From a virus (taxonomy: Duplodnaviria; Heunggongvirae; Uroviricota; Caudoviricetes): a stretch of 9,406 nucleotides of DNA. The notes below the pieces were generated by a model that saw only the letters and a list, made by a program, of their open reading frames with translations, was not told where the DNA came from and did not search any database. Both the position numbers and the translations under genes were made by a program. The stretch is from the IMG/VR virus record IMGVR_UViG_2648501787_000010; one strand, written 5' to 3'. Positions 8,105-8,164 of this stretch are shown in pieces. How positions within the stretch are numbered: the first letter of the stretch is position 1; each line of letters opens with the position of its first letter.

Positions 8105-8154
8105 ATAGGCGATTATACGATGGTTTAGCATGGTTTGCACTGGTTGTACTGGTT
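8105..8154 (-). promoter_or_regulatory. promoter for the 80-aa ORF (TATAAT at 8112-8117, minus strand) with four phased TGGTT repeats across the -35 region
   Basis: Plus strand TGGTTTAGCA TGGTTTGCAC TGGTTGTAC TGGTTTTTTG (copies starting at 8121, 8131, 8141, 8150; spacing 10, 10, 9 bp), immediately downstream of the integrase stop (8165-8167). Confidence 0.45.
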
Positions 8155-8164
8155 TTTTGTACAG

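Follow-up and report, generated by a model that had tools for sequence, protein, structure and literature searches.

The DNA analysed in this study (referred to below as the window) is a stretch of 9,406 nucleotides assigned to the Caudoviricetes (IMG/VR virus record IMGVR_UViG_2648501787_000010). Judged from its gene content, it can be classified as a phage-inducible chromosomal island (PICI) of the EcCICFT073 type residing at tRNA-Pro, i.e. a small phage-satellite island, which is read on the minus strand. We focused on positions 8105-8166, which separate the stop codon of the integrase gene int (8165-8167) from an open reading frame (ORF) of 80 amino acids, whose ATG is located at 8051. An earlier note had interpreted four phased TGGTT repeats in this region as binding sites of an activator. 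Our analysis revealed that the feature is a composite regulatory cassette, found in a family of Escherichia coli phage-satellite islands, and not a set of four equal activator sites. In the direction of transcription, the cassette consists of a (predicted) LexA operator (8166 to 8147), a variable stretch of about 10 bp, two copies of AAACCAT placed one helical turn apart, and the dinucleotide CG followed by TATAAT. We estimate at roughly 0.55 the probability that these parts act together as a sigma-70 promoter lacking a -35 element, which receives an SOS input (LexA) and the input of a second factor at the two proximal repeats.

On the plus strand, TGGTT is present at 8121-8125, 8131-8135, 8141-8145 and 8150-8154, i.e. 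at a spacing of 10, 10 and 9 bp (direct reading and exact search), and TATAAT occupies positions 8112-8117 of the minus strand (ATTATA on the plus strand; exact search), as the earlier note had described. The note was also correct in considering the -35 poor: the best hexamer at a distance of 17 bp is GTGCAA (3/6), none with at least four of six matches was found at 16-18 bp, the bases preceding the -10 are TCG and not the TGn of an extended -10, and a consensus promoter scan calls no promoter. The pentamer itself is not enriched in the window (25 copies versus 20.9 expected). Nevertheless, the array is non-random, since a chain of four identical 5-mers placed 9-11 bp apart appeared in only 2 of 2000 Markov-1 and 2 of 2000 Markov-3 simulations of 9.4 kb.

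The segment was collected from E. coli genomes, IMG/VR and metagenomes, which yielded 23 distinct versions, of which the 20 gap-free ones were compared column by column. The claim that the four decamers are copies of one site was not confirmed by this comparison, because only repeats 1 and 2 (counted from the -10) are nearly invariant, whereas repeats 3 and 4 vary. Repeat 3 is replaced by TCGCTT, TAGTTT or TCGTTT; it lies in a linker (8137..8146, minus strand) that comprises the most variable columns of the segment, the region occurring as ACAACCAGTG, AAAAGCGATG, AAAAACTACG or AAAAACGATG and the repeat as ACAACCAG, AAAAGCGA, AAAAACTA or AAAAACGA. In the version carried by the window, it resembles a local duplicate of a LexA half-site (AACCAGT twice, 9 bp apart). 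Repeat 4 varies at its first C/A, and the conserved letters around it are CTGTA...CAGTA and not TGGTT. The third and fourth TGGTT copies are lineage-specific. Four equivalent sites on one helical face, serving a single activator, are therefore not supported: repeat 4 is part of the predicted LexA operator, repeat 3 is unconserved, and repeats 1 and 2 are located at -31 to -15. What stands of the original interpretation is that the array is non-random and lies upstream of a conserved consensus -10 without a usable -35, in a segment that is under purifying selection and holds the predicted curvature maximum of the window; the equality of the four sites is not supported.

The homology between island variants extends from the 3' end of int to just past the -10, where it stops abruptly, and its profile on the int strand is CTGTA(C)A-N-AAA-NN-CAG-NNN-AA-N-C-NNN-G-N-AAACCAT-NNN-AAACC-R-TCG-TATAAT. 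The cassette is physically linked to the 3' end of int and travels with it. Between the window and the Nissle/L088 lineage (L numbers denote the loci compared), the 47-nt segment from the int stop codon to the -10 differs by 19%, whereas the divergence at synonymous sites is 57-63% in int (dS above 1) and 79% in the 80-amino-acid ORF, which indicates that the segment is under selection. Similarly, when 33 distinct versions of the last 300 nt of int plus the cassette were considered, 40% of the columns were variable in the segment, compared with 76% of third codon positions. On the basis of this conservation, the 47-nt non-coding segment can be regarded as functional DNA.

The distal element of the cassette is a predicted LexA operator (8147..8166; plus strand TACTGGTTTTTTGTACAGTT, int strand AACTGTACAAAAAACCAGTA), a palindrome that contains repeat 4 and takes in the last two bases of the int stop codon; its centre lies at about -51 relative to the predicted start of transcription. 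Its inner part (8148-8165, ACTGGTTTTTTGTACAGT) is the sole occurrence of ACTG-N10-CAGT in the window, where 0.07 are expected, and fits the SOS box consensus TACTG(TA)5CAGTA (PMC9578287). A position weight matrix (PWM) was built from 29 E. coli SOS boxes that were not taken from a curated file. With this matrix the site scores 20.6, within the range of these boxes themselves (12.7-26.6, median 19.6), and the next best site of the window reaches 7.8. A measure resembling the heterology index (HI) gave 4.3, again within the range of the 29 boxes (1.0-9.8, median 5.2) and, like the PWM score, better than their median, the 0.01% quantile of random 20-mers being 12.5. Nine sites with a PWM score of at least 17 were found in 720 kb of unrelated loci; four of them are the homologous cassette and about five represent background.

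Within the family, none of the 20 gap-free variants departs from CTGTA or CAG, which account for nearly all of the invariant columns in the distal half, and the spacer between them varies; CAGTA is retained in all but three of the 23 variants. This variation (CCAG/ACAG and changes in the spacer) is within the tolerance of real boxes. Homologous boxes that are near the consensus, and better still than that of the window, are present at the same place in L011 (TACTGTATATTCATACAGTA, HI 1.4), in the Edwardsiella locus L012 (AACTGTATATAACAACAGTA, HI 3.3), which has a second box in addition, and in L010 and L089. The distance between the box and TATAAT is maintained at 27-29 nt in E. coli, L012 and L010.

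The proximal part of the cassette, on the minus strand, comprises repeat 2 (AAACCAT, 8130..8136, about -31 to -25, containing the second TGGTT), repeat 1 (AAACCAT, 8120..8126, about -21 to -15, containing the first TGGTT) and the conserved CG with the consensus -10 (8112..8119, the hexamer running from 8117 to 8112). From the position of the -10, transcription is predicted to start at about 8105-8106. Repeat 2 is invariant, except for one singleton, in the 20 gap-free variants, and repeat 1 is AAACC[A/G]T in all family variants other than L089. The two 7-bp cores are thus nearly invariant, whereas the 3-nt linker between them (8127-8129) is hypervariable. TATAAT, a full sigma-70 -10, is found in 22 of the 23 variants (TATAGT in the remaining one) and also in L012 and L010. 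E. coli groups A and B, Edwardsiella hoshinae (AAAACAGGAGGAAACAGACGTATAAT) and the metagenomic relative L010 have AAAC (at -31 to -28 and at -21 to -18), CG and TATAAT in a common register. The loci of Pantoea stewartii, LSJC7 and Phytobacter have two AAAC[AC]G units placed nearer to a weaker -10. AAACCRT is present only twice in the window, both times in the cassette. No second phased cluster of the repeat motif was detected in the island (L001 3300-14100, including both att arms), where the best other score was 14.8 and shuffled sequences gave 12.4 +/- 3.0. In three relatives (L008, L010 and L011), the Rfam int-alpA RNA (RF02996) follows the end of the homologous cassette after 4-18 nt; the cassette there occupies the place that a promoter must have.

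The way in which the cassette may work can be outlined as follows. TATAAT would be an active promoter, whose missing -35 and spacer are occupied by the two AAACCAT repeats, so that it would depend on upstream contacts and/or on a protein factor bound at AAACCRT. In the resting cell, LexA would bind at about -51 and cause repression by covering an A6 tract otherwise used by the alpha subunits of RNA polymerase. DNA damage, which is also the inducer of lambdoid helper prophages, would remove LexA and raise the expression of the small gene. Transcription would proceed from near 8105 through a hypervariable leader into the 80-amino-acid ORF and end at 7804-7779, before alpA. The position of repeats 1 and 2 (-31 to -15) is no less compatible with a repressor or a CII-like co-occupant than with a classical activator; AlpA and the YlcI/YnfO protein (ribbon-helix-helix-like, RHH-like) are only candidates for the protein that binds them.

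Several observations weigh against this proposal. Apart from the negative result of the promoter scan mentioned above, the two proximal cores are only marginally depleted of changes (about 2 versus 6.4 expected, P about 0.05 by a hand estimate from the variability profile). Most SOS operators overlap the -35, the -10 or the transcription start site, whereas the centre of the box described here lies at about -51 and the E. coli variants have no good promoter across it, and thus repression of the TATAAT promoter is not assured. The SOS-box matrix was not drawn from a curated file. For EcCICFT073, the one studied relative, a dependence of alpA expression on the helper phage, not on the SOS response, has moreover been reported (PMC6092414). 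In this island the int-proximal module is a different one and the box-like site has a degenerate right half (ACAC). A match of 17-19 nt between the window and the int-alpA spacer of EcCICFT073 (TGTACTGGTTTTTTGTACA against TGTACTGTTTTTTTATACA; equalled in 2 of 300 shuffles) is best explained as two LexA-box-like sites. The same pattern, when sought in the whole collection, had many unrelated contexts among the matches listed, and it also resembles the X2 region of lambda attP, a resemblance dominated by a run of T residues.

Other explanations of the cassette have to be considered. A chance or neutral low-complexity stretch would agree with the lack of window-wide enrichment of TGGTT and with the lineage specificity of the third and fourth copies, but the conservation data exclude it for practical purposes: the chain is hardly ever obtained in simulations, 81% identity is retained beside nearly saturated synonymous sites, and recognisable homologues exist in Edwardsiella and in Pantoea-like islands. 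More serious, though in our opinion doubtful, is the view that the four phased TGGTT/AACCA units are equivalent head-to-tail sites for one oligomerising activator, or for an excisionase-type winged-helix protein such as AlpA, which switches the promoter on. The spacing of 10/10/9 bp speaks in its favour, as does the presence of two AlpA-family genes in the window. Recombination directionality factors (RDFs) are described as binding direct repeats one helix turn apart and as able to regulate promoters (PMC7498355), and AlpA as activating its own promoter region in EcCICFT073 (PMC6092414); the latter island carries, after int, six ACAAC units at exactly 10 bp, whose motif is phased also at attR and attL. 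Unit 3, however, is unconserved and unit 4 is already explained by the LexA palindrome. Furthermore, a second phased motif cluster is missing from the island and its att arms, the AlpA of L090 is 71% identical to that of the window and yet L090 has no such repeats, and the best-conserved units lie at -31 to -15, which is unusual for an activator.

That the DNA acts through its shape, without any dedicated protein, seems unlikely. According to this explanation, the phased A-runs (A6, A2, A3 and A3, each followed by C) create a bent, UP-element-like region that compensates for the missing -35 of a constitutive promoter. The suggestion of a bending site, already made in the earlier note, did gain support from the phased A-tracts and from a wedge-model profile, whose highest value in the entire window (52 degrees, z 3.9) falls at 8147-8148. 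L087, L088, L002 and L006 likewise have their overall maximum at the homologous spot; in L007 and L090 the non-homologous 11-bp repeats take this rank only when the full wedge model is used. The A-runs stay in place and in phase even in variants with changes at the other bases of unit 3. On the other hand, any repeat with a 10-bp period scores as curved, the peak of L089 reaches only the 97th percentile, the match to the UP-element consensus is poor (our own comparison), and curvature alone does not require the conserved C, CAT and CG of units 1 and 2 or the distal CTG/CAG. It is also conceivable, but rather improbable, that the LexA box is real and serves a weak overlapping promoter of the same direction, or read-through from int, and that TATAAT is controlled separately through AAACCRT. 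This would account for the centre of the box at about -51 from the TATAAT start; in L011, the classical SOS arrangement can be read from the sequence, with ATGACA-17 bp-TACAGT lying across the box, and read-through is possible, since neither a terminator nor a stable RNA structure separates the ORF from int. Against this, the window and its E. coli relatives have no acceptable -10/-35 on the box (the best, GTGTAA/TACAAC, lacks T at -10 position 6), and the fixed distance of 27-29 nt from box to TATAAT suggests that the two work jointly. We consequently prefer the composite promoter with a LexA input and a second factor.

The unit preceded by the cassette begins with a hypervariable 5' untranslated region (8052..8106, minus strand), of which at least six unrelated versions occur in relatives. 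The variable part, consisting of the leader (8052-8104) and codons 1-12 of the 80-amino-acid ORF, is inserted between the conserved cassette and the conserved body of the ORF, and most leader versions retain an out-of-frame upstream ATGA. A recombination hotspot, a specificity determinant or an RNA target may account for this variability. The stretch from int to the ORF gave no terminator call and no unusual RNA structure (z-score of the minimum free energy, MFE, -0.57). The ORF (7809..8051, minus strand) has no Pfam, PHROG or NCBIfam match. It encodes a predicted three-helix protein with a basic GGRPKKWKR tail, modelled by AlphaFold2 (AF2) with a confidence (pLDDT) of 76 and with only weak fold matches. 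Its non-synonymous divergence from the Nissle-type copy (pN 0.165, compared with a pS of 0.79) identifies it as a real gene. It is followed by an intrinsic terminator (7779..7804, minus strand; 10-bp stem and T run), which is situated upstream of alpA and conserved in relatives. Thus, the predicted transcription unit comprises one ORF under purifying selection and a terminator. Both the ORF and the window-type alpA are present in 91 of 91 E. coli loci with the cassette, so that linkage does not distinguish AlpA from the small ORF as the binder of the repeats.

The cassette is also combined with other downstream partners. In L012 it precedes an ORF of 197 amino acids, and int-alpA RNA matches (RF02996) were obtained in L008, L010, L011, L018, L034, L035 and L038; none was found in the window between 7400 and 8300 at E<=10. 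It appears, from these arrangements, that the cassette would drive the 80-amino-acid ORF in the window and the Rfam int-alpA RNA in Pantoea-like relatives.

A separate element was noted at 7705-7744, just after the terminator of the 80-amino-acid ORF and 65-105 nt upstream of alpA. It consists of two 20-bp units in tandem (AAAACAGTGAGTACCGTTTT and AAAACGGTGAGTACTGTTTT); both are inverted repeats of AAAACNGT and are kept in the 80%-diverged loci L087, L089 and L156, and the element is probably the operator of the alpA promoter. With its AAAACNGT half-sites it has some likeness to the cassette repeats, but the other genera in which the cassette occurs do not have it.

The overall layout of the island is that of a PICI: int - alpA - (Icd/YlcI) - DUF4222 - primase - SSB - capsid/decoration genes, about 10 kb in total, with a fixed att site. 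The gene order matches that of EcCICFT073, an experimentally studied PICI, from which the integrase module differs. The integrase is a P4-type tyrosine recombinase of 413 amino acids (8165..9406, minus strand; stop codon TAA at 8165-8167) with the Pfam domains Phage_integrase, Phage_int_M and Arm-DNA-bind_3 and an NCBIfam match to PRK09692 at 553 bits. After the 80-amino-acid ORF and its terminator, the next gene is alpA (7639 to 7433, minus strand), encoding an AlpA of 68 amino acids; downstream of it in the island order there is a YlcI/YnfO (RHH-like) gene on the plus strand. The remaining genes are, in order, DUF4222, a D5_N primase, SSB, a major capsid protein, a decoration protein, a second AlpA-like gene (114 amino acids) and a small terminase; the window thus has two AlpA-family genes. 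Segment 7640-8300 (the alpA-proximal spacer, the 80-amino-acid ORF, the cassette and the 3' end of int) is matched in E. coli chromosomes, where the copies adjoin tRNA-Pro between yejM and yejO and the island edges are formed by a duplication of the 3' end of the tRNA.

Some further observations concern the island as a whole. L001, whose int-alpA region is 100% identical to window 7640-8300, has a RepA-type helicase (8454-9860) where the window has the D5_N primase (4105-5859), and it seems, from this comparison, that the replication module has been swapped between otherwise near-identical islands. The mechanically listed ORF of 346 amino acids at 6388-7428 (minus strand) is almost certainly not a gene, and the homologous region of L001 is annotated in RefSeq with short genes (Icd-like, YlcI/YnfO and hypothetical). 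At 3860-4095, directly downstream of the primase gene, an AT-rich stretch is surrounded by TRTCTACCT (five copies) and inverted GGGTAGAYAG (five or six copies), a layout that agrees with the one described for PICI replication origins. In L001, TAGCTA-type repeats (including CGTATAGCTWAACGTGTAGCTAAAAA) are placed on both sides of the att core, in the att arms at 13780-13870 and 3450-3480, i.e. outside the window; they are probably integrase arm-type sites unrelated to the TGGTT repeats.

Arrays of phased repeats behind int are found again in other Escherichia PICIs, although of other sequence. In EcCICFT073 (E. coli CFT073, L182, NC_004431), six ACAAC units placed exactly 10 bp apart begin 28 nt after the stop codon of an unrelated int (7188-7247), and the same phased motif is present beside the att core at attR (17059-17088; equalled in 1 of 200 shuffles) and attL (5850-5879). 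In 52 IMG/VR variants of this array the cores are conserved and the linkers variable. It looks like a set of excisionase/AlpA operators, and one that seems to be unreported: the word "repeats" is absent from the main text of the 2018 EcCICFT073 paper. In the E. albertii-type integrase module (Int 86% identical; L007 5285-5328 and L090, about 1395-1430, minus strand), the cassette is replaced by three to four copies of GGAGCCAATTT with an 11-bp period, three copies of CCATTATTTAAAGTYAGAAGA precede alpA, and isrK and C4 antisense RNA genes are found further downstream. Phased repeats after P4-type int genes are not a general feature: they were detected in 2 of 76 diverse loci, against a background of 3%. 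EcCICFT073 also carries a strong LexA-box-like site between perC and the capsid operon (L181 410-429, NC_004431 1385409-1385428; AACTGGATGAACATCCAGTT, PWM 21.7, HI-like 5.3). This site has no counterpart in the window and is reminiscent of the LexA control of operon I of the SaPIs (pathogenicity islands of Staphylococcus aureus).

A number of other functions were considered for the region and rejected. Arm-type sites of Int are not a suitable explanation, as the att arms carry TAGCTA-type repeats and not TGGTT, and a motif scan gave no array-like cluster there. An antitermination element of the Pseudomonas AlpA type is inapplicable to a 68-amino-acid AlpA, since that AlpA is larger, 21Q-like and uses a single GGGACG site. 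The structural data given above (MFE z-score, no terminator call) speak against a terminator or structured RNA after int. The int-sense strand is rich in C and poor in G (29 C and 16 G in 113 nt), as in a Rho utilisation site, but the conserved positions are the A-runs and the arms of the palindrome. Sites for P2 Ogr/Delta (TGT-N12-ACA), sigma-54, sigma-S (C at -13), TyrR, OmpR, MraZ, CII and PhoP each fail on spacing, orientation or conservation, as judged by eye from consensus sequences.

In the published description, AlpA is a helper-induced activator, and no repressor is named as known for Gram-negative phage-inducible islands (PMC6092414). The cassette bears on how these islands are silenced and on how they sense their helpers. 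A broader idea, which we put forward very tentatively and to which we assign a low probability, is that a large group of Gram-negative PICIs could receive through the cassette the sensory input that has hitherto been missing. LexA and a second factor would then gate a small regulator between int and alpA (the 80-amino-acid protein in the window, the int-alpA RNA in other genera), which would decide whether AlpA fires, and such satellites would read the SOS signal directly, and not just a helper-phage product. The suggested SOS input would have been missed in the work on EcCICFT073 because the int-proximal module of that island is different. The cassette also provides a concrete and cheap experimental handle on two orphans that lie at the regulatory entrance of this widespread family of PICIs, namely the 80-amino-acid protein and the int-alpA RNA. 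Finally, the example indicates that tidy phased repeats can combine unrelated elements, which is relevant to the design of mutations in 8105-8166.

The cassette can be compared with several known types of regulatory region. In lambda, CII binds TTGC-N6-TTGC at PRE, and the PhoB and PhoP boxes are direct repeats that stand in place of the -35. These activator-dependent promoters share with the cassette a good -10, the absence of a -35 and direct repeats with a period of 10-11 bp around the -35 position. The repeats of the window differ from CII sites in orientation and sequence and reach down to -15, and their period is 10 bp and not the 11 bp of PhoP boxes, although GGTTTA-N4-GGTTTG resembles PhoP half-sites. 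The arrays bound by 186 Apl, P2 Cox and lambda Xis are likewise short direct repeats one helical turn apart over a promoter, and the island encodes excisionase-family (AlpA) proteins. In contrast to these arrays, the window has just two conserved units out of four, and the att arms lack the motif. The spacing fits an RDF operator, for which at least three equivalent direct repeats are expected, but only units 1 and 2 share a motif; similarly, no phased motif was found at the att arms in L001 3300-14100, whereas EcCICFT073, the positive control, does show one. The ACAAC array of EcCICFT073 fits the RDF operator family much better than do the repeats of the window.

The loci with the int-alpA RNA (RF02996), a candidate sRNA or leader located between int and alpA genes, are closer relatives. 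The cassette is placed directly upstream of the RNA in L008, L010 and L011, and the window shares with them both the cassette and its setting between int and alpA, differing in that a hypervariable leader and the 80-amino-acid ORF take the place of the RNA. With the SOS-regulated promoters of E. coli, the cassette has in common a palindrome of 20 bp in which ten bases lie between CTG and CAG and the spacer is A/T-rich, as well as CCAG in one half and a score within the range of real boxes. The uvrB control region has a box, AACTGTTTTTTTATCCAGTA, upstream of its main start site, and among these promoters it is the closest look-alike. The cassette differs from them in having its putative operator near -51, on the stop codon of the upstream gene, in combination with two repeats in the region of the -35 and spacer.

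LexA control of mobile elements has been described for operon I of the SaPIs (Ubeda et al. 2007, as cited in PMC6092414) and for integron integrase promoters (Guerin et al. 2009, as cited in PMC9578287), while the induction of Gram-negative PICIs is described as SOS-independent (PMC6092414). Like SaPIs and integrons, the islands studied here are predicted to possess a site for the host SOS repressor within a mobile element, and would respond to the signal that induces helper prophages. In SaPIs, however, the controlled unit is the packaging operon, whereas the cassette would control a small gene or the int-alpA RNA, placed between int and the master regulator gene alpA.

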